Below are positions 45,175 through 64,000 of a DNA stretch of 64,000 nucleotides, in pieces. Source of the stretch: a virus. A program made the position numbers and the translations under genes. Every line of letters starts with the position of its first letter. Position 1 is the stretch's first letter. The stretch is taken from positions 26,968-90,967 of the IMG/VR virus record IMGVR_UViG_3300022821_000014; one strand, given 5' to 3'. The notes below the pieces were generated by a model, which was not told the origin of the DNA, made no database searches, and saw nothing but the letters and a program-made list of their open reading frames with translations.

Positions 45175-45264
45175 GGAGGGTAATGCGGCATGGGTGCTGT
45201 CACTGCCTCGAAAGCAGAGGGCTCGTCAGAGATGGCGAGTGGGGTTCAACTCCTCTGCCCTCCT
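45175..45264 (+). tRNA. tRNA-Ser(CGA)
   Basis: GGAGGGT/GCCCTCC acceptor; CTGC-CTCGAAA-GCAG; long variable arm; TTCAACT. Confidence 0.85.
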
Positions 45265-53965: not shown

Positions 53966-54328
53966 ATGGATAAGTTGAGGGCATGGCTGACTAACCCTAA
54001 AGTGTTGTTGGTCATAGCCGTTCTTCTTGTTATTTTGAACTTTATTGACGGTGGCTTTTCTTTCTGGGCAATCTATGTTGCTCAGATTGCTTACGAGGCA
54101 AACCCTATCATGGCAGCTCTTATGGCTGTTTCGCCGTATGTCTTTCTCGTCTTCAAGGTAATAGTCCCGACAATTGCGTCATATGTTCTCTACAAGTATC
54201 GGGAACAACCAATTAGAGGTGTAAAAGTTGCCACCTGGATTCTCTGGGCTAGTTTTTTTCTGTATGTAGGATTGATGGTTCATTTCGGGTTTCTTTTACA
54301 GACAGCTATGAATGCTGGCTTTCTATAG
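53966..54328 (+). CDS. Membrane protein (DUF5658-like)
   Basis: LNFIDG, EANPIM, FKV; three or four TM helices. Confidence 0.6.
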   Translation: MDKLRAWLTNPKVLLVIAVLLVILNFIDGGFSFWAIYVAQIAYEANPIMAALMAVSPYVFLVFKVIVPTIASYVLYKYREQPIRGVKVATWILWASFFLYVGLMVHFGFLLQTAMNAGFL

Positions 54329-54415
54329 AATTTTTCTATTTGGGTTCACACTTCCTACCTAAGGTAGTACAGTATTGTTGTCTTCGATGACGAGGACGAC
54401 GAAACATTCTAAAGA

Positions 54416-54712
54416 ATGACCGATTTACGAAGAAAAGTTGAACTGCGACGATTCCGCTTGAGACGGAATGAAGATGAGTCTGGTGTTTCTGGCACTGGCT
54501 ACGTAGCTGAAGGTGTCAAGTTTACAGATGGGCAGTGCGTCATAAAGTGGTCCACAGATACCAGCAGTATTGGCATTTATCATTCCTGGGTAGAAATGAT
54601 GGCGATTCATGGGCACGGCGGTAAAACCGAGATTGAATGGGTTGATGCAGAATCCCTCGGTGGCAGTGGAGCAGCGGAAAATCCCTCTAAACCTACTAAA
54701 AAGAAAAAGTAG
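54416..54712 (+). CDS. Conserved hypothetical phage protein
   Basis: FRLRRNEDESGVSGTGYVAEGVKFTDG...IHGHGGKT. Confidence 0.7.
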   Translation: MTDLRRKVELRRFRLRRNEDESGVSGTGYVAEGVKFTDGQCVIKWSTDTSSIGIYHSWVEMMAIHGHGGKTEIEWVDAESLGGSGAAENPSKPTKKKK

Positions 54713-54720
54713 AAAACTGG

Positions 54721-54864
54721 TTCACAAACACACACCGAAGTAGTACAATGATTCTTAGGTTGACAAGCAAGACAAAACGTCAAACAAACGACCGAGAGAA
54801 AAATCACACACAAAGTAGATAAATCGGTTTACAATCCTACTTAGAAGTAGTACAATGATTCTTA
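54721..54864 (+). promoter_or_regulatory. Tandem sigma70 promoters P1/P2 of the tRNA operon
   Basis: TTCACA-N17-TACAAT (54721-54749) and TTTACA-N17-TACAAT (54828-54856); 21-bp identity GAAGTAGTACAATGATTCTTA. Confidence 0.75.
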
Positions 54865-54917
54865 CGCTCAACGAAGCAACTTCCTGAGCGCTGCATAGCA
54901 GCCACGCTGCAACACTT

Positions 54918-54991
54918 GACTCTGTCCTACTAATCAGTATGATGGTCACCCTAACCAGGTGAATTTGTGGGTTCAAATCCCCGTAGAGTCA
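54918..54991 (+). tRNA. Atypical/degenerate tRNA with AAC anticodon
   Basis: GACTCTG/TAGAGTC; TCACC-CTAACCA-GGTGA; weak D and T stems. Confidence 0.5.
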
Positions 54992-55050
54992 CTACAAATC
55001 TTCGGATTTGGATTTCTTCTATACTGCTCCACGAGAGTATAGATTCATTA

Positions 55051-55069
55051 GTTCGTTGAAAACTGAATA
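55051..55069 (+). promoter_or_regulatory. boxA-like antitermination element
   Basis: GTTCGTTGAAAACTGAATA; the 14-nt core TTGAAAACTGAATA recurs at 62901-62914. Confidence 0.55.
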
Positions 55070-55175
55070 CGTCTTACAGTTCATCTGCACTGTTACCAGA
55101 AAGCAGATGATGTAAAGACGAGCTACGTTAGTAACCATGGTTTATTCTGTGGAGGAAGCGTAGCCGTCTAAACTT

Positions 55176-55246
55176 GCAGCATTGGTGTAGTGGAAACATC
55201 TTTGGCTTCCAACCAAAGGTCACGAGTTCGAACCTCGTATGCTGCT
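55176..55246 (+). tRNA. tRNA-Gly(TCC)
   Basis: TTTGG-CTTCCAA-CCAAA; full cloverleaf. Confidence 0.92.
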
Positions 55247-55320
55247 TTTTTCTCAGGCCCTCCCGAGGTAACTTTCGGGTCCTGCGTGAACAAGAGATTG
55301 GTTGTCTTTTCTGGGAAAAT

Positions 55321-55393
55321 GGGATGTTAGCATCAAGGAGATGCAACGGGTTCCTCGACCCTATCGAGGCAGGTTCAATTCCTGTGCATCCCA
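55321..55393 (+). tRNA. Atypical tRNA, Lys-like body with an 8-nt anticodon loop
   Basis: Body resembles 57288-57359; GGG-TTCCTCGA-CCC. Confidence 0.5.
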
Positions 55394-55409
55394 CTTACAA
55401 ATGACTAAC

Positions 55410-55482
55410 TTGGAAGGTGGATGAAGTTCACTGCTAGTTTCATCACTGTGGGGTGAGGACAGTGAGTCGCAACTCTCCCCAA
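55410..55482 (+). ncRNA. Four-way-junction RNA with potential kissing loops
   Basis: GATGAAG/TTTCATC, ACTGT/ACAGT, GAGT/ACTC; loops TTCACT and GGTGAG are complementary. Confidence 0.4.
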
Positions 55483-55485
55483 TTT

Positions 55486-55559
55486 GGGTTCTTAGTGTAA
55501 CTGGATTAGCACTCCAGATTTGTTAATCAACAGTCTGGGTTCAAATCCCAGGGAACCCA
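55486..55559 (+). pseudogene. tRNA with disrupted anticodon arm
   Basis: Good acceptor, D and T arms; CCAGA-TTTGTTAA-TCAAC is mostly unpaired. Confidence 0.55.
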
Positions 55560-55612
55560 CTGGAGCGAAAGCCCGTGCACGAAGGCTTGACAGTCGGAGA
55601 GACGACATTTCT

Positions 55613-55683
55613 AGGTCACTGGTGTAATGTAGCATGACGATCTCCAAAATCGTTCGGTCTGAGTTCAAGTCTTAGGTGGCCTG
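55613..55683 (+). tRNA. tRNA-Trp(CCA)
   Basis: ACGAT-CTCCAAA-ATCGT. Confidence 0.9.
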
Positions 55684-55745
55684 TAAATCCTAGAACTGAA
55701 GGTTCCTGCCCTGGGCAGCGAAAGCTGGTTGGTAGCCTTCAAAAT

Positions 55746-55818
55746 GTCTTCGACGCCGACAGGAACGGCAGCTCGCCTTCTAAGCGAGTTTTTGAGGGTT
55801 CGAGTCCTTCCGAAGACG
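55746..55818 (+). tRNA. tRNA-Arg(TCT)
   Basis: CTCGC-CTTCTAA-GCGAG. Confidence 0.88.
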
Positions 55819-55864
55819 CTGAGAGTGTAAGACTGCCGATTATGGCAGCCCCTGCACTCGATTA

Positions 55865-55937
55865 GGGGCATTGGTCCAGTGGTTGAGGACGCTAGGCTGT
55901 CTACTTAGAAGCACGGGTTCGATTCCCGTATGCCCCG
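55865..55937 (+). tRNA. tRNA-Asp(GTC)
   Basis: CTAGG-CTGTCTA-CTTAG. Confidence 0.88.
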
Positions 55938-56037
55938 CTAGTTTCCGTTCAGGAAACAATAAATGAGCCGTGTAGCCTGAGGGCCTAGGAGAGTCGCTAT
56001 CTCTTAGAAGTTCGAACCCCATAGGGCAGCGGCATAT

Positions 56038-56111
56038 AGGATCGTAGCATAACTGGTAGTGCGCCTCCCTGTCACGGAGCGAGTGTGCGAGTTCAAATCT
56101 CGTCGGTCCTG
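56038..56111 (+). tRNA. tRNA-Asp(GTC)
   Basis: CTCC-CTGTCAC-GGAG. Confidence 0.88.
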
Positions 56112-56256
56112 TCAAGTTCTATTTCTAGAAATATGTGTATAACCTCGATAAGTGAGGGAACTGTTTTTTCTATCCTCCTACTTAGAAGAGTAACGGCAAA
56201 TGTTTCTACCGAAAAAGTTGTTTTGCCGTGCTATTTACTGTCAAGGGTAAAAGGTT

Positions 56257-56547
56257 ATGACAAGAATCACACTTAGAACATTGAGAGCCATGATCCGTGA
56301 AGCGGTTCGTGAAGAAATGAAGAACGGCCTAAACGAGGCAGGCTTCATGGGCGCCGGCGGTAAAATGCAAGGCGCTCAACGGGGTGGAGTAGGTAGTCGT
56401 CAGGCACTTTCCAAAACTGGTGGAATGACAGGTTATTCCTCCATGAATTTGGATGAGTTGGTTGCAGCGATGAAATCAGCCTCCGAGGCAGATAAACCAC
56501 ACATCAAAAAGGCTATCACAGCTCAGCTCAAGGCAGCTGGCTGGTGA
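56257..56547 (+). CDS. Small leader-bearing protein
   Basis: MTRITLRTLRAMIREAVREEMKNGLNE; TATTTA upstream. Confidence 0.75.
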   Translation: MTRITLRTLRAMIREAVREEMKNGLNEAGFMGAGGKMQGAQRGGVGSRQALSKTGGMTGYSSMNLDELVAAMKSASEADKPHIKKAITAQLKAAGW

Positions 56548-56667
56548 GCAAATAGCTGGTATTACCAGCTTTTAGAGAAAAAAACTCTAAATAGGTTCAA
56601 AAGACCTGATTATAGTGTTATACTCTTAGGTAGGAAGTCAAACAGACCTTTTACCTAAGAGTACGAC

Positions 56668-56886
56668 ATGGAATACCAGAACTTTTCGATCAATACTGCT
56701 GAAGATCTTGTCAAGGGATTTGCCATTGGCATCCGAGACAAGGTCATTGACCTCACTGAGGTTCGAGATATCGTATTGGCGAGTACGGATGATGAGCGAC
56801 TTACCCAAGTTGTTCTTGAGAAGGTCCAGCTGGAGTTGGAGTGCATGGAGCACTTTGCTCTCAGGGTAGCTGCTACGGCAGCCTGA
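56668..56886 (+). CDS. Hypothetical protein
   Basis: 72-aa ORF. Confidence 0.55.
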   Translation: MEYQNFSINTAEDLVKGFAIGIRDKVIDLTEVRDIVLASTDDERLTQVVLEKVQLELECMEHFALRVAATAA

Positions 56887-56942
56887 AAAAAAGCTGTTCA
56901 CAATCATTTATGTCTGTCCTAAACTACTTAGGTAGACAACAT

Positions 56943-57014
56943 GGGGCCTTAGTGCTAACGGGAACACACCTGCTTTGCACGCAGGAATTAAGGGTTCGAT
57001 TCCCTTAGGCTCCA
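56943..57014 (+). tRNA. tRNA-Ala(TGC)
   Basis: CCTGC-TTTGCAC-GCAGG; G3:U70. Confidence 0.92.
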
Positions 57015-57206
57015 TTATGAACTGCATAACCAACTGTAGTCAAGGAACGTCACTGTAGATTCAAGACGTGACTGCTCGGAGAGTCGAGCAAAACTTCGGT
57101 GGTGTCAGGCTTCAAGATACTCCACCTAAAACAGACTGGTAGTGAAGTAGGTACGTTCCACCACAAGGGGCAGACAAGTGGTAGGAAATGAAGACCTGCC
57201 CGTTCT

Positions 57207-57279
57207 CGGTCGTTGGTGTCAGCGGCAGCACACTGGGCTCTTAACCCACGAAGCAGAGGTTCGAATCCTCTACGACCGA
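57207..57279 (+). tRNA. tRNA-Lys(CTT)
   Basis: TGGG-CTCTTAA-CCCA. Confidence 0.9.
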
Positions 57280-57287
57280 CTAAACTT

Positions 57288-57359
57288 GGGACGTTAGCAT
57301 CAAGGCGATGCACTGGCCTTTTAAGCCATCTGAGCTGGGTTCGATTCCCAGGCGCCCCA
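57288..57359 (+). tRNA. tRNA-Lys(TTT)
   Basis: TGGC-CTTTTAA-GCCA. Confidence 0.88.
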
Positions 57360-57361
57360 CT

Positions 57362-57823
57362 ATGAAAAAGTGTTCTTCTTGCAAAGTATCCAAAACGAGA
57401 AATGAGTTCAATAAAAACTCTTCTAAGTGTGATAACCTTCAAAGCATGTGCCGTGCTTGCAATAAGAAAACTGCTAAAAATTATTATGCTAAAAACAAGT
57501 CGCATCACCGATTAGTCTGTAGCCAGATTAAAAAAAGGCGCATCAGAGAAAATCAAAATAAACTTTTCGAGGTGCTACGCAGAAGTGAGTGTGTTGATTG
57601 CGCTGAAAGAGATCCGTTGGTATTAGAATTTGACCATGTCCAAAAAAAGGACCACGGAATATCAGAGTTGCTTTGTGGTGGGTATAGCTGGCACCGAATT
57701 TTTGCTGAAATGAAAAAATGTGAAATACGCTGTGCAAACTGCCACAACAAGAAAACACACCAAGCAAATAATTCGTATCGTTGGAGGCTTTTAGTTGAAC
57801 TAAAATCTTGTACGTCTCACTAA
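57362..57823 (+). CDS. HNH endonuclease
   Basis: CSSC...CRAC; CVDC...LEFDH...KCEIRCANCH. Confidence 0.85.
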   Translation: MKKCSSCKVSKTRNEFNKNSSKCDNLQSMCRACNKKTAKNYYAKNKSHHRLVCSQIKKRRIRENQNKLFEVLRRSECVDCAERDPLVLEFDHVQKKDHGISELLCGGYSWHRIFAEMKKCEIRCANCHNKKTHQANNSYRWRLLVELKSCTSH

Positions 57824-57834
57824 ACGAGGTTCAC

Positions 57835-58080
57835 ATGTTGATTCAAGTATGGAAAGATAGTAATGGACTAGGTGTTATGCCGAAGCCAAATGCTGATGCG
57901 CTCTGGGAGAGCGGTCACATGTGTATCAACGCAGTCCTCGTTCGTGAATATGAAGCAAAAACCTGGTACGAAGCGATGTGTAAGCATCATGAGTTTCAAG
58001 GTTGGGGCGAGTACAATCCTCCTCGGCTAATGAATGGTGACATCGACCCTGTGGTTTTACAGCCACTAGATGATGTGTGA
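57835..58080 (+). CDS. Hypothetical protein
   Basis: GAGGT RBS; 81 aa. Confidence 0.55.
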   Translation: MLIQVWKDSNGLGVMPKPNADALWESGHMCINAVLVREYEAKTWYEAMCKHHEFQGWGEYNPPRLMNGDIDPVVLQPLDDV

Positions 58081-58268
58081 TAATAATGTCCTATAGTAGA
58101 CTGGTTTAGCCATCTCGATCAATCGATGATAAATTATGAACATAGTTCGGATGAGTACGACTAACAAGGGTTGCAAGTTCATTGCTTGCCTGGGGGCCTC
58201 CAAACGCCTCTGGTAGTTTAATGAAAACACTTGTAAATTTTCTTCTTACTCCAGCAGAGTAAGAATAT

Positions 58269-58342
58269 GGCGCAGTCTTCTAATGGCTTAGGAACCTTGG
58301 CTTTCATCCAAGACAATGTGGGTTCGAGTCCCATCTGCGTCA
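58269..58342 (+). tRNA. tRNA-Glu(TTC)
   Basis: CTTGG-CTTTCAT-CCAAG. Confidence 0.9.
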
Positions 58343-58348
58343 CTCAAT

Positions 58349-58423
58349 GGTCCTGTCGTCTACTATGGTTTAGGACACCAACCTCTCAAGTTGGAGAACC
58401 GAGTTCGAACCTCGGTGGGATCA
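58349..58423 (+). tRNA. tRNA-Glu(CTC)
   Basis: CCAAC-CTCTCAA-GTTGG. Confidence 0.9.
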
Positions 58424-58485
58424 TTCGAATAGGTTCTAGTTTCAGCGACTAAATTAAAATAGCACGCCAGCTATGCCTAAAACAT

Positions 58486-58571
58486 GGCCGAGTGGGGGAA
58501 TTGGCAGACCCGCAGGATTAAGGATCCTGTTCCCATAAAAAGGAGTGCAGGTTCGATGCCTGTCTCGGCTA
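58486..58571 (+). tRNA. tRNA-Leu(AAG)
   Basis: CAGGA-TTAAGGA-TCCTG; long variable arm. Confidence 0.85.
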
Positions 58572-58746
58572 CTATTTTGGTGCGAGCTTCAAGAAAGTCC
58601 CTACGAGTACTGAAGCCCTGGTTTAGGGAGCAGCAGTTATGTCACTTGCCAAATCCGTGAGTGGAGAATGACGGCATCAACAATTTCAAGAGGTTCTCCC
58701 GAGTCAGTGGGGATTAAAGCGGAGATTCGGCGAACGCCTCTTATTT

Positions 58747-58829
58747 GCTCGAATGGTGGAATGGCAGACACACACGCCTGAGTAGCGTGACCACGAAAGT
58801 GGGTAAGAGTTCGAATCTCTCTTCGAGTA
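58747..58829 (+). tRNA. tRNA-Leu(GAG)
   Basis: CACGC-CTGAGTA-GCGTG; long variable arm. Confidence 0.88.
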
Positions 58830-58832
58830 CTA

Positions 58833-58910
58833 AAAGAGAAGATGGTTCGCAGGGTGACGGCGACTAATAATCGCTGGTGAAACGACGCCGTACATCTTGA
58901 AAATCTCTTT
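58833..58910 (+). ncRNA. AGAUGGUUCG-family structured RNA, copy A
   Basis: AAGAGA/TCTCTT and AGATG/CATCT stems; internal CGGCGA-CTAATAA-TCGCTG. Confidence 0.6.
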
Positions 58911-58919
58911 CTTTGATAT

Positions 58920-58961
58920 CGTGGGTTGGAAAAGTAGCAATTCGCTAGGCTCATAACCTAG
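58920..58961 (+). pseudogene. tRNA-Met(CAT) 5' part, truncated after the anticodon arm
   Basis: CTAGG-CTCATAA-CCTAG; no T arm follows. Confidence 0.75.
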
Positions 58962-59062
58962 GGATACTCAAAACAAAAACTTTAGATAGAACTTTCCCAA
59001 ATTGGAAAGATTTCTATTTCCCGATGGGGGCAATGGCGCAATGGCGTGCCAGCGGACTGTAA
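58959..59062 (+). repeat. 104-bp exact direct repeat, copy 1 (HNH 3' end + tRNA-Tyr 5' half)
   Basis: Identical to 59603-59706. Confidence 0.9.
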
Positions 59063-59106
59063 AATGTTACACAGACATTTGAAGTTCGGTTACTCATACT
59101 AAAAGT

Positions 59107-59706
59107 ATGAAGTGTTTGGAGTGTTCAAACCCTTTGGAAACAAAGGATGCAAAGAAGTTTTGTTCCCGTTCTTGTTCGGCAACGTTCAATAACAGGAATC
59201 GAGTTCTGACTTCTAAAACCAAGTCTAAGATCAGGGTCGGCGTTCTTGGTTTCCATGCTGAACTTCCAAGAAGTCAGTACGATTATGTGTGTGACAAATG
59301 TTTGGCTGCATTCACTTCGTATGTTTATATGAGGAAAAGTCGATCGGTTAGATGCAAATCTTGCAAAAGGGTGGTGAAGAGAGCAACTAAGGATGCACGG
59401 TCGATTTTGGAGTTATCAAAACGAACAATAACCAAGTTGCTTAAAAGAGCTAACTTTGGTTGCGTTATGTGTGGCTGGGATCGCACGACGTTGGACATCC
59501 ATCACATTTTGCATAGAAGTAAAGGTGGAACCGATGCACACCAAAACTTGATAGCATTATGTCCGAATTGCCATCGTTTGGCACATGAGGGCAAATATGA
59601 CTTAGGGATACTCAAAACAAAAACTTTAGATAGAACTTTCCCAAATTGGAAAGATTTCTATTTCCCGATGGGGGCAATGGCGCAATGGCGTGCCAGCGGA
59701 CTGTAA
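59107..59706 (+). CDS. HNH endonuclease; stop codon lies in the tRNA-Tyr anticodon loop
   Basis: KFCSRSC; CVMCGW...DIHHI...GGTDAHQNLIALCPNCH. Confidence 0.9.
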   Translation: MKCLECSNPLETKDAKKFCSRSCSATFNNRNRVLTSKTKSKIRVGVLGFHAELPRSQYDYVCDKCLAAFTSYVYMRKSRSVRCKSCKRVVKRATKDARSILELSKRTITKLLKRANFGCVMCGWDRTTLDIHHILHRSKGGTDAHQNLIALCPNCHRLAHEGKYDLGILKTKTLDRTFPNWKDFYFPMGAMAQWRASGL

Positions 59707-59750
59707 CTCCGTGGCCTTCGGGCGGGTAGGTTCGATTCCTACTGTCCCCA
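59670..59750 (+). tRNA. tRNA-Tyr(GTA)
   Basis: GCGGA-CTGTAAC-TCCGT; variable arm with TTCG loop. Confidence 0.9.
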
Positions 59751-59852
59751 CTTAGAAGAGAACAGATATACATAAGTCAAGTAGTCTGTGCTAGAGCGGT
59801 ACTTGTAAATGTTAGTAGCCCGCCATCTTCGCATAATCTATCTCTGTTGAAG

Positions 59853-59939
59853 CGTATTACATCTCCAGTCACAATATTGGGGTGTAGGAAGTGGGGCTCG
59901 TAAGTGACTACGAGGAAGCAGTGCCCAATCGCTGCTACG
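59853..59939 (+). ncRNA. Four-way-junction RNA with potential kissing loops
   Basis: TACATCTC/GGGGTGTA (loop GTCAC), CTCGTA/TACGAG (loop AGTGAC), GCAGTG/CGCTGC. Confidence 0.45.
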
Positions 59940-59954
59940 GTTTAACAGGATTTT

Positions 59955-59986
59955 GGGGTCTTAGCTCACCTGGGAGAGCGTCTGTC
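59955..59986 (+). pseudogene. tRNA 5' half (Ala-like)
   Basis: GGGGTCT-TA-GCTC-ACCTGGGA-GAGC-G-TCTGTC; pairs with the 3' half of 60523-60594. Confidence 0.7.
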
Positions 59987-60001
59987 GACATACTTATCGG
60001 T

Positions 60002-60532
60002 ATGGACAACAAACTACTTGAACAGTATGTGCAGGCTAAGCTGAGTACATATGACATAGCTGCTGCGACTGGCAAAAGCCAATCAACAGTTAGATACTGG
60101 CTCAAGAAATACGGATTGAAAACCAGTCCATATAAGACCAAAAGGCAATGCCTGGTCTGTGAAAAGGTTTGCGCAACCACAAGGGCAAAATACTGCTCGA
60201 ATGGTTGCCAGAACGAAGCTCAGTACAACAAGTACATCCTGGAATGGAAACTTGGAAACGTCTCTGGAAACATGAGTAGCGGAAGAAATCTGAAGCTAAG
60301 CAATCATGTTCGTCGATTCATCCGAGAAAAACACGGAGAACACTGTTCAATATGTGGGTGGAATGAGCGTCACAAAATCACTGGTAAGGTACCAACAAAC
60401 GTTGACCATGTTGACGGAAATCCGTACAATACTAGTGAAGACAACTTGAGAGTGTTGTGTCCAAATCATCACTCACTAACAGAAACTTACGGAGCTTTGA
60501 ATAAAGGCAACGGTAGAAAAATGGGGCTTTAA
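60002..60532 (+). CDS. HNH endonuclease with N-terminal HTH; overlaps the downstream tRNA
   Basis: STYDIAAATGKSQSTVRYWLKKYG; YCSNGCQ; CSICGW...VDHVDGN...NLRVLCPNHH. Confidence 0.9.
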   Translation: MDNKLLEQYVQAKLSTYDIAAATGKSQSTVRYWLKKYGLKTSPYKTKRQCLVCEKVCATTRAKYCSNGCQNEAQYNKYILEWKLGNVSGNMSSGRNLKLSNHVRRFIREKHGEHCSICGWNERHKITGKVPTNVDHVDGNPYNTSEDNLRVLCPNHHSLTETYGALNKGNGRKMGL

Positions 60533-60594
60533 CTCAGCGGGAGAGTGTTACGCTGTCAGACAAAAGGTGAAGGGTTCAAGTCCCTTAGGCTCCA
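60523..60594 (+). pseudogene. Chimeric tRNA (Ala body, GTC loop, broken anticodon stem)
   Basis: G3:U70; TTACG/ACAAA barely pairs. Confidence 0.6.
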
Positions 60595-60596
60595 CT

Positions 60597-60663
60597 AAGA
60601 GAAGATGGTTCGCCGCCAATGGCCTGTGAAACGGCCGAATGGTTATGGTCTTGAAAATCTCTT
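60597..60663 (+). ncRNA. AGAUGGUUCG-family structured RNA, copy B
   Basis: AAGAGAAGATGGTTCGC...GTCTTGAAAATCTCTT. Confidence 0.6.
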
Positions 60664-60667
60664 TCAT

Positions 60668-61031
60668 GGGTTCATGGTCTAATAGATTTGACACCACTCC
60701 TTCAGCCTACCTAGGATAAAGCTGTAGTGAAGTGTTTAAACGGCAAGACACACGCTTGCCGGCGTGTAATGCAGGTTCGAGTCCTGTTGAATCTACTAAC
60801 TGTTCTGACGCTGGCAACGTAAATGCTGAAGCTGGGTTAGCTACCAGTGGATAAGGGCCCTTGAATGGGTAAGCTATATAATCCATCAATAGTAAGTAAC
60901 TTATAGTTTAACTGGAAAAACGCCCATACGGGAGATGAGGGTTCGAGCCCCTCTGAGCCAAAACTAATGAGATTTCGGTGTACAACGAATCAGGATTTAT
61001 GGTAGAGGTTTGAGTCCTCCGCAGAACGCCA
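60668..61031 (+). pseudogene. Cluster of decayed tRNA remnants
   Basis: 5' stub at 60668; GCC-like remnant with T arm at ~60724-60795; D+T arms with CCC-ATAC-GGG mini-arm at ~60900-60960; T-arm remnant ending CCA at ~61031. Confidence 0.5.
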
Positions 61032-61036
61032 ATTTT

Positions 61037-61085
61037 CGAGAATAGATGGTTCGCAGGTCATGAACTTGCCGTACGTCTTTTCTCG
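61037..61085 (+). ncRNA. AGAUGGUUCG-family structured RNA, copy C
   Basis: CGAGAA/TTCTCG, AGATG/CGTCT, GCAGGT/ACTTGC. Confidence 0.6.
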
Positions 61086-61088
61086 TTT

Positions 61089-61124
61089 GCCGCCTAAGCT
61101 AATCTGGTGAAAGCGCCGAGTTGA
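61089..61124 (+). pseudogene. tRNA-Phe-like 5' half broken in the anticodon
   Basis: GCCGCCT-AA-GCT-AATCTGGTGAA-AGC-G-CCGAG-TTGA. Confidence 0.7.
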
Positions 61125-61156
61125 TTAGGCAGCATAAACTATTGTAGCCATACTAA

Positions 61157-61390
61157 CAATATGGAACTGCACGGTCTACGCACTTGAAAAATAGATTATT
61201 ACAAGCTAAGGTGATTGAGAATCAATGCCATGCTTGTGCACAAATACCCACGTGGAAGGGCAAGAAATTAGTTATGGCCTTGGACCATATTAATGGTGTG
61301 AGAAACGACAATAGACTTGCAAATTTGAGGTTACTTTGCCCGAACTGCAATTCACAACAGCCTACATTTTGTAGGGCAAACGGAGCCTGA
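61157..61390 (+). pseudogene. N-terminally truncated HNH endonuclease; overlaps tRNA-Phe
   Basis: CHAC...W...LDHINGVRNDNRLANLRLLCPNCN. Confidence 0.75.
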
Positions 61391-61454
61391 GCAAGTGAGG
61401 TCATTGCGCTGGTCTGAAAAACCAGAGAACTCGGATCGATACCGAGAGGTTCCA
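61382..61454 (+). tRNA. tRNA-Phe(GAA)
   Basis: CTGGT-CTGAAAA-ACCAG; T loop ATCGATA. Confidence 0.85.
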
Positions 61455-61500
61455 CTAAGTGCCTCGGAGAGTCAGGAACAAAACCTGAAGGCGGCACTAA

Positions 61501-61572
61501 GAGTAGATGGTTCGTTTTACGTCAACCGCCTCCCTAAAAGGGGATAAGGAACGATTTAGCTGTACGTCTCTC
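61501..61572 (+). ncRNA. AGAUGGUUCG-family structured RNA, copy D
   Basis: GAGTAGATGGTTCG...CTGTACGTCTCTC. Confidence 0.55.
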
Positions 61573-61576
61573 AATT

Positions 61577-61606
61577 TCTAGCCTAGCCAAGTGGCAAGGT
61601 GTTCAC
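61577..61606 (+). pseudogene. tRNA-Asn-like 5' stub
   Basis: TCTAGCC-TA-GCC-AAGTGGCAA-GGT, similar to the 5' end of 62194-62265. Confidence 0.65.
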
Positions 61607-61635
61607 TTATAGTTTGTTTGTGATAGGATACTATC

Positions 61636-62187
61636 GTGTCACACGCATCAGAAAAGGTAAAACTTTGGCGTCAACAAACCAAAAAACGGATAGTAAAAGC
61701 TTTTGGAGGTTCATGTGGTATATGTGGATATAGTCGTTGTAACGACTCTTTAGCGCTTCACCATATCAACCCAGAAGAAAAAGACTTTTCCTTAGGGGCT
61801 ATCAGAGCTAATGCTTGTTCATGGGCGAAGATAGTTGTTGAACTTAGAAAGTGCATATTGGTGTGTCATAATTGCCATTCAGAAATTCATGCAGGCCTGG
61901 CGCATGTGTCGAAAGACATCACAAGGTTTGATGAGAGTTTCGCTGAATATCGGAAACCTAAACCGAAGTTTAGCGGCGTTTTTTGTCACTGTGGTCAAGA
62001 ATTGACTTTTGAACAAAAGAAGTACTGTTCGAATGTTTGTTATGGACTAAAAAACAGAAAAATTGACTGGGATGCATTTGATCTATCAGCGTTGTACGCC
62101 AAATATCCTGTTACACAAATAGCAGATATACTTGGCGTCAGTGACCAGGCTGTGCATAAAAGGCTGAAAAAATTAGGTTTGAAATAA
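61636..62187 (+). CDS. HNH endonuclease with C-terminal HTH
   Basis: GGSCGICGY...LALHHINP...KCILVCHNCH; IADILGVSDQAVHKRLKK. Confidence 0.9.
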   Translation: MSHASEKVKLWRQQTKKRIVKAFGGSCGICGYSRCNDSLALHHINPEEKDFSLGAIRANACSWAKIVVELRKCILVCHNCHSEIHAGLAHVSKDITRFDESFAEYRKPKPKFSGVFCHCGQELTFEQKKYCSNVCYGLKNRKIDWDAFDLSALYAKYPVTQIADILGVSDQAVHKRLKKLGLK

Positions 62188-62193
62188 CAATAT

Positions 62194-62265
62194 TCTGGGG
62201 TGGCCAAGTGGTAAGGCGATCGGCTGTTAACCGATAGAGCGTGGGTTCGACCCCCACCCCCAGAG
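62194..62265 (+). tRNA. tRNA-Asn(GTT)
   Basis: ATCGG-CTGTTAA-CCGAT. Confidence 0.93.
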
Positions 62266-62354
62266 CTAACTGATTACCGTTCTAAACCCTCAAACTTTAT
62301 TATTTGAGGACTTGTCGGTTGGTTTTATATCTTAGCAGATACAAAATGCTATTT

Positions 62355-62425
62355 TCGGGGTTCGTCTAATGGCAGGACCGTGGTTTCTGGTACCACTAAT
62401 GGGAGTTCAAATCTCTCACCCCGAG
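62355..62425 (+). tRNA. tRNA-Gln(CTG)
   Basis: GTGGT-TTCTGGT-ACCAC. Confidence 0.88.
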
Positions 62426-62431
62426 TAATTT

Positions 62432-62513
62432 GGAAGGTACGGTGCATGGTGCACAACCAGTCTTGAAAACTGGCGCATGTGAAAGCATGGTGGTTCGACT
62501 CCTCTACCTTCCG
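62432..62513 (+). tRNA. tRNA-Ser(TGA)
   Basis: CCAGT-CTTGAAA-ACTGG; long variable arm. Confidence 0.85.
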
Positions 62514-62531
62514 CTCAGTAAAGTGAAATAT

Positions 62532-62603
62532 TCGGGAGTAGTTCAATGGTAGAGCGCTTGACTTTGAATCAAGTGGTTGTGAGTTCGAGTCTCACCTCCC
62601 GAT
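62532..62603 (+). tRNA. tRNA-Gln(TTG)
   Basis: CTTGA-CTTTGAA-TCAAG. Confidence 0.92.
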
Positions 62604-62606
62604 TTT

Positions 62607-62695
62607 GGAAGATAAACCTAGAGGGTTCTGGGGCTAGTTTGCTAAACTAAGTGGTCAAGAAATTGACTGGGGATCAAGACCTCTATCTTCCGCCA
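62607..62695 (+). tRNA. tRNA-Ser(GCT), CCA encoded
   Basis: TAGT-TTGCTAA-ACTA; long variable arm; T loop ATCAAGA. Confidence 0.82.
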
Positions 62696-62701
62696 ACTCA
62701 T

Positions 62702-62775
62702 TCCCGAGTGTTCTAATGGTTTATGATGCTGACCTCTGAAGTCATGCGATGTTGGTTCAAATCCAGCCTTGGGAG
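62702..62775 (+). tRNA. tRNA-Gln(CTG)
   Basis: TGAC-CTCTGAA-GTCA. Confidence 0.85.
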
Positions 62776-62924
62776 CTAAATGGTCAAATAGCTGGTTTTC
62801 TAAAATGGCAAATCCCCATTATTGGGTTTACACTACCAGCTGATTGTGTTTCTATTAGAGAATAGAGAAACGGGTCGCAAAGACCTAGCTACTCTAGACC
62901 TTGAAAACTGAATAAGAATACCAC

Positions 62925-62998
62925 GCTTCATAAGCATTGTTGGTTCGATGCACTCGCCTTGTAAGCGAGAGAGAACGGTTCGAGTCCGTTATGAAGCT
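62925..62998 (+). tRNA. tRNA-Thr(TGT)
   Basis: CTCGC-CTTGTAA-GCGAG. Confidence 0.92.
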
Positions 62999-63001
62999 CT
63001 C

Positions 63002-63069
63002 GAATAGGCTGTGCTTGTCTGGTCACCTAAGGCTGTTTCACAGCCCCACTATCAGTGGAACCAGAGTAT
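63002..63069 (+). ncRNA. Pseudoknotted inter-tRNA RNA, copy 1
   Basis: GCTGTG/CACAGC crosses CTGGT/ACCAG; hairpin CCACT/AGTGG; core GGTCACCTAAGG. Confidence 0.65.
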
Positions 63070-63140
63070 GCTCGCATAGTTCAATGGAAGAATATTCGGC
63101 TTCGAACCGAACGATCAAGGTTCAAATCCTTGTGTGAGTG
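63070..63140 (+). tRNA. tRNA-Arg(TCG)
   Basis: TTCGG-CTTCGAA-CCGAA. Confidence 0.9.
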
Positions 63141-63143
63141 CTA

Positions 63144-63214
63144 GAATAGCGACCGACAGTGTTTGGTCACCTAAGGGTGTTTCGGTCCCATCTTGAAAGA
63201 TGAAACCAAGGTAT
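63144..63214 (+). ncRNA. Pseudoknotted inter-tRNA RNA, copy 2
   Basis: GACCGA/TCGGTC crosses TTGGT/ACCAA; hairpin CATCT/AGATG; core GGTCACCTAAGG. Confidence 0.65.
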
Positions 63215-63288
63215 GCTCTGTTAGTGAAATTGGATTATCACGCTACCCTACGAAGGTTGTATTTCAGGTTCGAATCCTGGACAGAGTG
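63215..63288 (+). tRNA. tRNA-Arg(ACG)
   Basis: ACC-CTACGAA-GGT. Confidence 0.88.
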
Positions 63289-63295
63289 CTGAAAT

Positions 63296-63366
63296 GCGTT
63301 ATTAGTTTAGTGGTAAAATTCCTGCTTGCCATGCAGGGGTCCCGAGTTCGACCCTCGGATAACGCT
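63296..63366 (+). tRNA. tRNA-Gly(GCC)
   Basis: CCTGC-TTGCCAT-GCAGG. Confidence 0.92.
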
Positions 63367-63370
63367 CTTA

Positions 63371-63442
63371 GACGGGGACAGTTGGTAACACTGGCAGCGA
63401 ATTGCAACCTCGCTTTATAGAGTTCGATTCTCTACTCCGTCT
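63371..63442 (+). tRNA. tRNA-Cys(GCA)
   Basis: GCGAA-TTGCAAC-CTCGC; GACGGGG/CTCCGTC. Confidence 0.8.
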
Positions 63443-63453
63443 CTCAAAAAAAT

Positions 63454-63488
63454 GCTTCCTTAGTATAGTGGTTCATTACACAAGCTGG
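63454..63488 (+). pseudogene. tRNA 5' stub (Thr-like)
   Basis: GCTTCCT-TA-GTAT-AGTGGTTCA-TTAC-A-CAAGC, then the cloverleaf breaks. Confidence 0.6.
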
Positions 63489-63511
63489 CTGAAAGTTGTC
63501 ATATTTTCGAT

Positions 63512-64000
63512 ATGAAGCTAAGCAAAAGCGAAGCAGGTAGACTTGGCGCTGCTAAGTCCAGACTGATTACAGCGGCGAACTATCAGAAAAGATTGGAAAT
63601 TTATAGGGGCAGCCCTAAGCTTTGCGAAGGGTGTTCAAAGCCTATTGAATATGTCAAACGACAAAACAAGTTTTGCAATCATTCGTGTGCTGCTAAATAC
63701 ACCAACGTCCAAAGGGCTGGGTACAAAGCCAGTGCCATCAACAAAAATTTACAATGCTTCAACTGCAAGAAGAAGACTTCTTCAAATAGAAACAAGTATT
63801 GCAGTCATAGGTGCCAACAGAGCTTCCAACACAAGGCCTGGGTTCAAAGGTGGTTGGCTGGCCAGGAAGATGGCATAGTCTCCTCGGGAATGAGCACTTC
63901 GGCATCCATCAAAAGATGGCTAGTTGAAAGTTACGGTGAAAAATGTGTGTTGTGTGGATGGGATGAGGCAAACCCTCACTCAGGTCGAAGGCCTCTCAAT
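63512..64000 (+). CDS. HNH endonuclease, partial (runs off the window; not in the ORF track)
   Basis: MKLSKSEAGRLGA...CEGC...KFCNHSC...CFNC...KYCSHRCQ...IKRWL...KCVLCGWDE; similar to 60002-60532. Confidence 0.85.
   Translation, partial: MKLSKSEAGRLGAAKSRLITAANYQKRLEIYRGSPKLCEGCSKPIEYVKRQNKFCNHSCAAKYTNVQRAGYKASAINKNLQCFNCKKKTSSNRNKYCSHRCQQSFQHKAWVQRWLAGQEDGIVSSGMSTSASIKRWLVESYGEKCVLCGWDEANPHSGRRPLN

Follow-up and report, generated by a model that had tools for sequence, protein, structure and literature searches.

Near the right-hand end of a 64,000-nt stretch of the IMG/VR virus record IMGVR_UViG_3300022821_000014 (hereafter the window), a phage tRNA array contains a series of HNH endonuclease genes interleaved with broken and intact tRNA genes. 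We think it probable that free-standing homing endonucleases, each dedicated to one tRNA type, invaded this array through double-strand breaks and partly illegitimate repair. The window is the final 64 kb of a single 90,967-bp contig, with coordinate 64000 coinciding with the contig end. Between 59026 and 64000 lie five HNH open reading frames (ORFs), HNH1 to HNH5, each of which begins 11–57 nt after a tRNA-like 5′ fragment, or stub (S1 to S5), an arrangement that an earlier note on this DNA had already recognized. In four of these cassettes the HNH gene is followed by a tRNA gene, here called the cargo. All parts of the five cassettes lie on the plus strand.

Five HNH genes follow tRNA 5′ fragments

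The five ORFs display three architectures. HNH1 combines a zinc ribbon with an HNH domain, HNH2, HNH3, and HNH5 have a common HNH_3-type core, and HNH4 carries an N-terminal HNH domain and a C-terminal helix-turn-helix (HTH). The HNH motif with flanking Cys pairs, Pfam scores, or annotated relatives place all five among predicted HNH (His-Me finger) nucleases; HNH2 (21.9 bits) and HNH4 fall under the Pfam cut-offs, but the motif is visible in both and each has many HNH-annotated relatives. All five are separate genes and, with no group I or group II intron match around them at E ≤ 1, are taken to be free-standing.

To characterize the stubs, the first 27 nt of each were scored against 492 phage tRNAs, with 40 shuffles of the same sequence as a control. 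All five outscore their shuffles: S1 is an exact match, and the remaining stubs score 17 against a shuffle maximum of 8 (S2), 14 against 6 (S3), 13 against 10 (S4), and 12 against 8 (S5). Isotype calls from these 27 nt serve as hints only, because their leave-one-out accuracy is about one half. Profile hidden Markov models of tRNA halves were too weak even for genuine tRNAs, and the intron mode of ARAGORN at low thresholds produced many spurious calls, of which only 59955–60595 is used below.

The junctions at which the stubs end cluster at the anticodon loop, falling between tRNA positions 37/38 or 38/39 in S1, 32/33 in S2, and 38/39 in S3. At the opposite end of the unit, each of the four complete cassettes has an ORF that terminates inside the cargo tRNA gene or 6 nt short of it, and many relatives do likewise. 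Of the four complete HNH ORFs, three depend on the cargo tRNA for their stop codon; cleavage by RNase P would thus produce an mRNA that lacks a stop, which may act as a brake on nuclease expression. A CATACT-like box precedes the start codon of all five HNH genes by 6–7 nt, but by 3 nt in the case of the GTG of HNH4 (59092–59097, 59989–59994, 61149–61154 before the dead HNH3 start, 61626–61631 with GATACT before HNH4, and 63500–63505 with CATATT before HNH5); it is found at only about seven other ORFs of the 91-kb contig. In a search for sigma-70 promoters formed by stub and leader, the number of sites lay within about one standard deviation of shuffled sequence and none fell at the stub–leader junction.

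A tRNA-Ile gene apparently split by an HNH gene and a tRNA-Phe gene

S3 (61089–61127), previously taken for a Phe stub, instead matches the 5′ half of a tRNA-Ile(GAT) gene, with the loop TTGATTA, the anticodon GAT, and an overall resemblance to Met/Ile-type tRNAs. The corresponding 3′ half lies at 61463–61496 and supplies the stem strand CTCGG, a T stem of 5 bp closed by an unusual loop (AACAAAA), and the acceptor strand AGGCGGC. With canonical spacing, the two halves pair at 7/7 positions of the acceptor stem and 5/5 of the anticodon stem, and the T stem inside the 3′ half is paired at 5/5. The acceptor complement AGGCGGC at 61489–61495 is the sole perfect partner of S3 in the 64-kb window, and by our rough estimate a partner like this would arise by chance within 3 kb with a probability of <1e-6. 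When joined, the halves are called as tRNA-Ile(gat) by ARAGORN and fold into a minimum-free-energy cloverleaf at −30.7 kcal/mol.

The 335-bp insert between them (61128–61462) contains a leader, the HNH3 remnant (61184–61390), a complete tRNA-Phe(GAA) gene (61382–61455), and 7 further nt. HNH3 is frameshifted, with 68 aa left and a dead ATG at 61162; it scores 27.5 bits against PF13392 (cut-off 24.8) and has lost the last His of its motif, which reads CPNCN in place of CPNCH.

Resident portions of the array can be told apart with the help of a recurrent element, the E-type spacer, which looks like a native inter-tRNA spacer. Copies occur at 58835–58911, 60598–60665, 61039–61087, and 61500–61575, with a weaker copy at 59752–59850. 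Each starts 2–3 nt past a tRNA 3′ end and stops 1–2 nt short of the next tRNA 5′ end, with a conserved closing helix (AGAGAAGATG ... CATCTT..TCTCT) around a variable inner hairpin; two copies beat shuffled sequences strongly in folding (z = −4.0 and −3.7). One spacer (E3) directly precedes the 5′ half of the tRNA-Ile gene and another (E4) directly follows the 3′ half, which marks the HNH3–tRNA-Phe unit as the inserted part. The sequence thus indicates a resident tRNA-Ile gene split at 38/39 by an HNH–tRNA-Phe cassette, with a stub and a cargo of different types.

An apparently chimeric, defective tRNA-like gene downstream of HNH2

S2 (59955–59986) is the 5′ part of an Ala-like tRNA, consisting of the acceptor strand, the D arm, the anticodon-stem strand TCTGT, and C32. 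HNH2 (60002–60532, 176 aa) contains an N-terminal HTH, a zinc ribbon, and an HNH_3-type nuclease with a CPNHH motif, and its ORF reaches its stop codon within the tRNA-like gene that comes next (60523–60595, Rfam 41.5 bits). Both S2 and this gene are Ala-like, with a G3:U70 acceptor pair, and the loop CTGTCAG of the gene reads GTC. The gene lacks an anticodon stem of its own, as TTACG stands opposite ACAAA, whereas TCTGT of S2 pairs with ACAAA at 4/5 positions, just as had been pointed out before. Joining 59955–59986 to the 3′ part of the gene (60554–60595) yields a cloverleaf of −26.3 kcal/mol with CTGTCAG as a canonical 7-nt loop, compared to −20.5 kcal/mol and no anticodon stem for the present gene. 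A nearly identical join comes from ARAGORN in intron mode, which reports 59955–60595 as a tRNA with a 565-nt intron. Since the 3′ part fits S2 better than it fits its own 5′ part (60523–60553), the gene after HNH2 seems to be a defective chimera that unites a foreign 5′ part with a resident 3′ part.

A similar break is present in the phage whose HNH protein ranks first against HNH2 in BLASTP (48% identity). In this 185-kb IMG/VR phage (L035, 2853–3574), a tRNA-Ile(GAU) gene is split at 32/33, as at the S2 junction, by a 646-nt insert that holds only the HNH gene, and joining the flanks restores the loop CTGATAA. HNH2 relatives also occur in phages of ~112 kb that, to judge by their size and host, look T5-like.

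This geometry could mean that the HNH genes reside in tRNA-gene introns that are removed at the RNA level, with the stubs serving as 5′ exons and the tRNAs becoming functional after splicing. Cassettes 2 and 3 do have an exon-like layout, and the 565-nt intron call, the HNH-only insert in the tRNA-Ile of L035, and the many short anticodon-loop inserts among relatives fit this explanation, as do the ‘enigmatic’ tRNA introns published for Lak megaphages, one of which may encode a tRNA (PMC6784885). Other features make it very improbable. No Rfam match to group I or group II introns appears in 54000–64000 at E ≤ 1, and none to group I introns in eight related loci at E ≤ 0.1; that the array does without an intron had also been the view of the earlier note. 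The ORF nearly fills the insert, with only 15–35 nt lying outside it. Processing of the complete tRNA-Phe within the cassette 3 insert would cut the precursor in two, and the intact tRNAs that follow in cassettes 1 and 4 make splicing unneeded. The contig encodes a T4-type large terminase whose top matches (40% identity) come from Microcystis and Flavobacterium phages; this placement identifies the virus as an uncultured T4-like phage whose nearest relatives infect bacteria, which argues against a host with a tRNA splicing endonuclease. The bacterial hosts of these relatives are not known to have such an enzyme.

The short inserts themselves are frequent in four related loci (L035, L038, L045, and L076), where many tRNA genes carry 42–93-nt anticodon-loop inserts without ORFs. 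Several contain a common hairpin and a CTAACAGCAAG motif, and they are too short for group I introns.

The Tyr stub lies in a repeat that includes HNH1 coding sequence

HNH1 (59107–59706; 199 aa, zinc ribbon and HNH) scores 42.5 bits against PF01844 (cut-off 21.4). Its leader (59063–59106) carries the CATACT box before the ATG, and its TAA stop codon falls within the anticodon loop belonging to the intact cargo, tRNA-Tyr(GTA) (59670–59751, loop CTGTAAC). A 110-nt direct repeat, R, occurs upstream of HNH1 and again across its 3′ end: 58953–59062 corresponds to 59597–59706 with 2 mismatches, both at the left edge. The upstream copy begins with the terminal 73 nt of the HNH1 ORF (58953–59025) and continues with tRNA-Tyr positions 1–37, which constitute S1 (59026–59062). 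S1 is therefore an exact 37-nt copy of the tRNA-Tyr 5′ half that ends in the anticodon loop. The base after it (59063) is A, giving the canonical Tyr loop CTGTAAA, while the intact cargo has C. At most one base, position 38 (stub A, cargo C), separates the broken tRNA-Tyr from the working one, which does not support the diverged, cleavage-resistant replacement that had been envisaged.

The protein tail specified by R (NWKDFY...) is a conserved C terminus throughout the HNH1 family, and the 73-nt part of the repeat is therefore native HNH coding sequence. Because the upstream copy holds the end of HNH1, the broken Tyr gene must have adjoined an HNH1-type gene, and the view of S1 as half of a naive resident gene cannot be kept. 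Two other interpretations of this region were tried and set aside: an older HNH remnant to the left of R, where there is no similarity to HNH1, and a decayed full-length tRNA-Tyr made up of S1 and the leader, for which the length fits (81 nt) but only the GTTCG motif matches. Within the 3′ end of HNH1, just ahead of tRNA-Tyr, there is a terminator-like hairpin, CTTTCCCAAATTGGAAAG, trailed by a T-rich run; both copies of R carry it (58992–59019 and 59636–59663).

Repeat R is also relevant to the proposal that the stubs arose by local rearrangement, such as replication slippage or unequal recombination between tRNA genes, with no targeted cut and with the HNH genes as passengers in an unstable array. 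A simple partial duplication would include HNH coding sequence as R does, and degenerate tRNA-like genes also lie away from the HNH genes (55486, 60668–60796, 60897–60961, and 62607–62695). Rearrangement of this kind does not, however, account for the presence of a stub <60 nt upstream of all five HNH genes, the retention of 5′ parts only, the clustering of junctions at the anticodon loop, or a tRNA-Ile insert that equals exactly one HNH–tRNA unit. HNH clades, moreover, follow single tRNA types across hundreds of unrelated contigs. We consider this origin unlikely.

Cassettes 4 and 5

S4 (61577–61612) is an Asn-like 5′ fragment that directly follows spacer E4. Its nearest neighbor is the downstream tRNA-Asn, by a thin margin, and the similarity runs a few bases further upstream. 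The S4 acceptor strand does not pair with the 3′ end of the downstream tRNA-Asn, and a search by complementarity found no 3′ partner for it. HNH4 (61636–62187; 183 aa, HH..N..H motif, GTG start) ends 6 nt before the intact cargo, tRNA-Asn(GTT) (62194–62266).

S5 (63454–63497) is a tRNA-like 5′ fragment of uncertain isotype. Its acceptor resembles that of the tRNA-Thr in the window, but its anticodon region (GCTGG, then the loop CTGAAAG) is Phe-like; the best local match is the tRNA-Phe of the window, including the CTGAAA loop, and ARAGORN at a low threshold reads the anticodon as GAA. A Thr-like assignment, as first suggested, thus finds no support. HNH5 (63512–64000) is interrupted by the contig end. 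Its full protein, P0098, has 217 aa and a complete motif, and its C-terminal tail gives no clue to the next tRNA. Among protein records, HNH1 is found on 6 contigs and HNH5 on 9, the longest of which is 284,850 bp.

HNH clades are associated with single tRNA types

Relatives in other phages tie individual HNH lineages to particular tRNAs. Tyr accounts for 10/17 flanking tRNAs in the HNH1 clade, compared to a 5.7% background (P ~5e-9). HNH4 has 490 relatives in IMG/VR; around the 27 with at least 43% identity, 21/35 flanking tRNAs are Asn against 5.5% (P ~4e-18). These counts and P values ignore shared ancestry, as the loci are not phylogenetically independent. Further out, HNH4 relatives are found at Thr(tgt), Lys, Val, Met, or Phe, and a quick tree of zinc-ribbon HNH proteins contains separate Tyr, Thr(tgt), and Arg(tct) groups.

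The top-matching HNH1 relatives, from IMG/VR and from Lak megaphages, lie directly before tRNA-Tyr, after it, or between two diverged tRNA-Tyr genes. Layouts in which an HNH gene is flanked by two complete copies of one tRNA type occur at L005 and L007 (Tyr) and at L119 (Asn). At the family level, arrangements beside tRNA-Tyr and tRNA-Asn vary, with the HNH gene in place in some and missing in others. Another phage tRNA array includes a weak match to archaeal RNase P RNA (L047, 4442–4615; 45 bits against a gathering threshold of 84).

The stub proved not to be a family-wide feature, as most HNH relatives lack it. This bears on a further possibility, namely that stubs are kept as functional half target sites 11–57 nt before the start codon, which the nuclease would bind without cutting and so repress its own gene. 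Autorepression of this sort is established for I-TevI at its operator, and the constant position of the stubs just upstream of each HNH start is compatible with it, as is the CATACT leader box common to the HNH genes. Given that same-family relatives mostly do without stubs, and that stub lengths and states of decay differ within the window, we regard retention as operators as decidedly unlikely, even though such a role would be compatible with invasion by breakage and repair and is not opposed to it. The rarity of stubs beside relatives marks them as by-products of individual insertions and not as part of the element.

Setting of the array

The array runs from 55176 to the contig end and includes 25 of the 26 ARAGORN calls in the window; the 26th is at 45175. 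Other genes on the contig include a DNA polymerase and a CCA-adding enzyme. No integrase was noticed between 54000 and 64000, in keeping with the earlier suggestion that none was needed. Several degenerate tRNA-like genes also lie within the array. Those with anticodon-loop oddities or inserts are located at 55486–55560, 60668–60796, 60897–60961, 62607–62695, and 63371–63443, and include a loop of 6 nt, an insert of 42 nt, a form of 65 nt, and a Cys-like gene that emerges only when the threshold is lowered. These could be array residents that have decayed.

A sixth HNH-like ORF (57362–57823) has a DH...N...CANCH motif and matches Pfam HNH only at E = 0.04. It begins 1 nt past a complete tRNA-Lys(TTT) with no stub, in the same layout as the tRNA-Tyr and HNH genes of Lak phages.

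A model for invasion by breakage and one-sided repair

The anatomy of the array, repeat R, the split tRNA-Ile gene, and the association of HNH clades with tRNA types observed here would all be accommodated by colonization of the array by free-standing HNH homing-endonuclease genes, each lineage of which lives beside one kind of tRNA. The travelling cassette would consist of a short leader, the HNH ORF, and the tRNA gene (or its 5′ part) into which the ORF runs. In a genome without the cassette, the nuclease would cut a tRNA gene in or near the anticodon loop, and the break would be repaired from a cassette-bearing genome. As tRNA arrays are not collinear between phages, homology would often be available on the 3′ side only or on neither side, and the left end would then be joined illegitimately. 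The expected product is a resident 5′ stub followed by the leader and HNH gene and then the cargo tRNA. The position of the right-hand junction would set the outcome, giving an intact cargo (Tyr and Asn), a chimera (cassette 2), or an orphaned resident 3′ half (tRNA-Ile). Repair with one-sided homology may in this way explain both the constant order of parts and the three right-hand outcomes, and the cargo copy could be immune to the nuclease it travels with.

Several observations weigh against this model or restrict it. The 73 nt of HNH1 coding sequence before S1, which match the active copy apart from the left-edge mismatches, call for an extra step: either the occupied site was invaded again and then suffered a deletion, or part of the region was duplicated locally. 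The tRNA-Phe cargo does not replace the broken tRNA-Ile, so ‘break and replace’ is no rule. S4 and S5 are weakly characterized, stubs are rare beside homologous HNH genes in other phages, and the stub ends would be repair junctions and not necessarily cut sites. Alleles with the uninterrupted tRNA were an obvious check, also proposed beforehand, and no close relative, and hence no near-identical genome without the cassette, turned up in phage records (megablast), IMG/VR (protein and DNA patterns), JGI metagenomes, or GTDB genomes; the case for insertion is built on anatomy and not on a before-and-after comparison.

The idea of tRNA-targeting mobile nucleases put forward in the earlier note therefore survives in part. 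Isotype-tied clades (HNH1 with Tyr, HNH4 with Asn), breaks in or near the anticodon loop, and an ORF that runs into the travelling tRNA all speak for it, whereas replacement by a tRNA of matching type does not hold up as a general rule. Stub and downstream types agree for Tyr, with 37 identical nt; in cassette 2 both are Ala-like, but the downstream gene is the apparent chimera with its unpaired anticodon stem, which makes replacement doubtful; for Asn the agreement is thin, and for Phe it fails.

Comparison with known systems

T4 SegB is a free-standing GIY-YIG endonuclease encoded in a tRNA cluster that cuts tRNA genes and drags neighboring tRNA genes with it (PMC2330249). As in the window, a nuclease gene lies between phage tRNA genes; SegB is inherited with its neighbors and cuts inside the tRNA genes of related phages that lack it, and tRNA processing of the transcript is believed to restrict how much of it is made (PMC2330249). 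SegB differs in belonging to the GIY-YIG family and not the HNH family and in recognizing a generic T-arm motif of many tRNAs, whereas the clades described here are tied to isotypes and their junctions fall in the anticodon loop; stubs or split genes have not been described for SegB. With the principle known from SegB, our finding extends an existing idea and overturns none.

Endonucleases of a phage tRNA cluster reported in 2004 are said to be of the HNH type. In the account of that study given in PMC2330249, their ORFs lie inside the cluster, as they do here.

One-sided homing in T4 proceeds by illegitimate double-strand-break repair, with microhomology junctions and extensive resection (PMC2988022). 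Such repair would yield a resident stub followed by donor DNA, the order seen in the window. It was demonstrated for the td intron in engineered crosses, with neither tRNA genes nor natural isolates involved.

Phages and islands that carry integrases insert in tRNA genes, and their attP holds a copy of the tRNA 3′ end. There too, a mobile element brings a copy of the part of its target that it displaces, but it does so through a site-specific recombinase that duplicates the 3′ end, whereas a nuclease and a duplicated 5′ part are involved here. The Lak tRNA introns (PMC6784885) likewise are anticodon-loop inserts, and the possible tRNA in one of them parallels the tRNA-Phe in tRNA-Ile. Termed introns, the Lak inserts seem short, like the 42–93-nt inserts of related loci. 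Those in the window, unlike them, carry nuclease genes, and two duplicate the 5′ exon; Lak phages do have an HNH1 relative beside tRNA-Tyr.

Implications

What is new here is the set of isotype-dedicated clades, the anticodon-loop junctions, the apparent splitting of a tRNA-Ile gene with a foreign tRNA inside, and the putative chimera. We tentatively suggest, as a broader proposition that could well turn out otherwise, that isotype-dedicated HNH cassettes represent widespread, essentially undescribed homing elements specific to tRNA genes, in which the tRNA is both target and cargo. The cargo could carry an immunity change, for which C38 in the Tyr cargo versus A38 in the stub is a candidate, and repeated break and repair would drive the turnover, duplication, and half-swapping of tRNA genes, even producing hybrids such as an Ala-type acceptor with a GUC anticodon. 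The window presents the outcomes side by side, from perfect repair to a defective chimera and a gene in two halves, each a substrate for the study of cut sites and immunity. If correct, the model would also provide short natural nucleases that are sequence-specific and whose targets can be predicted, and it would explain the gain, loss, and reshuffling of phage tRNA arrays by selfish, isotype-specialized nucleases that need neither an intron nor an integrase.

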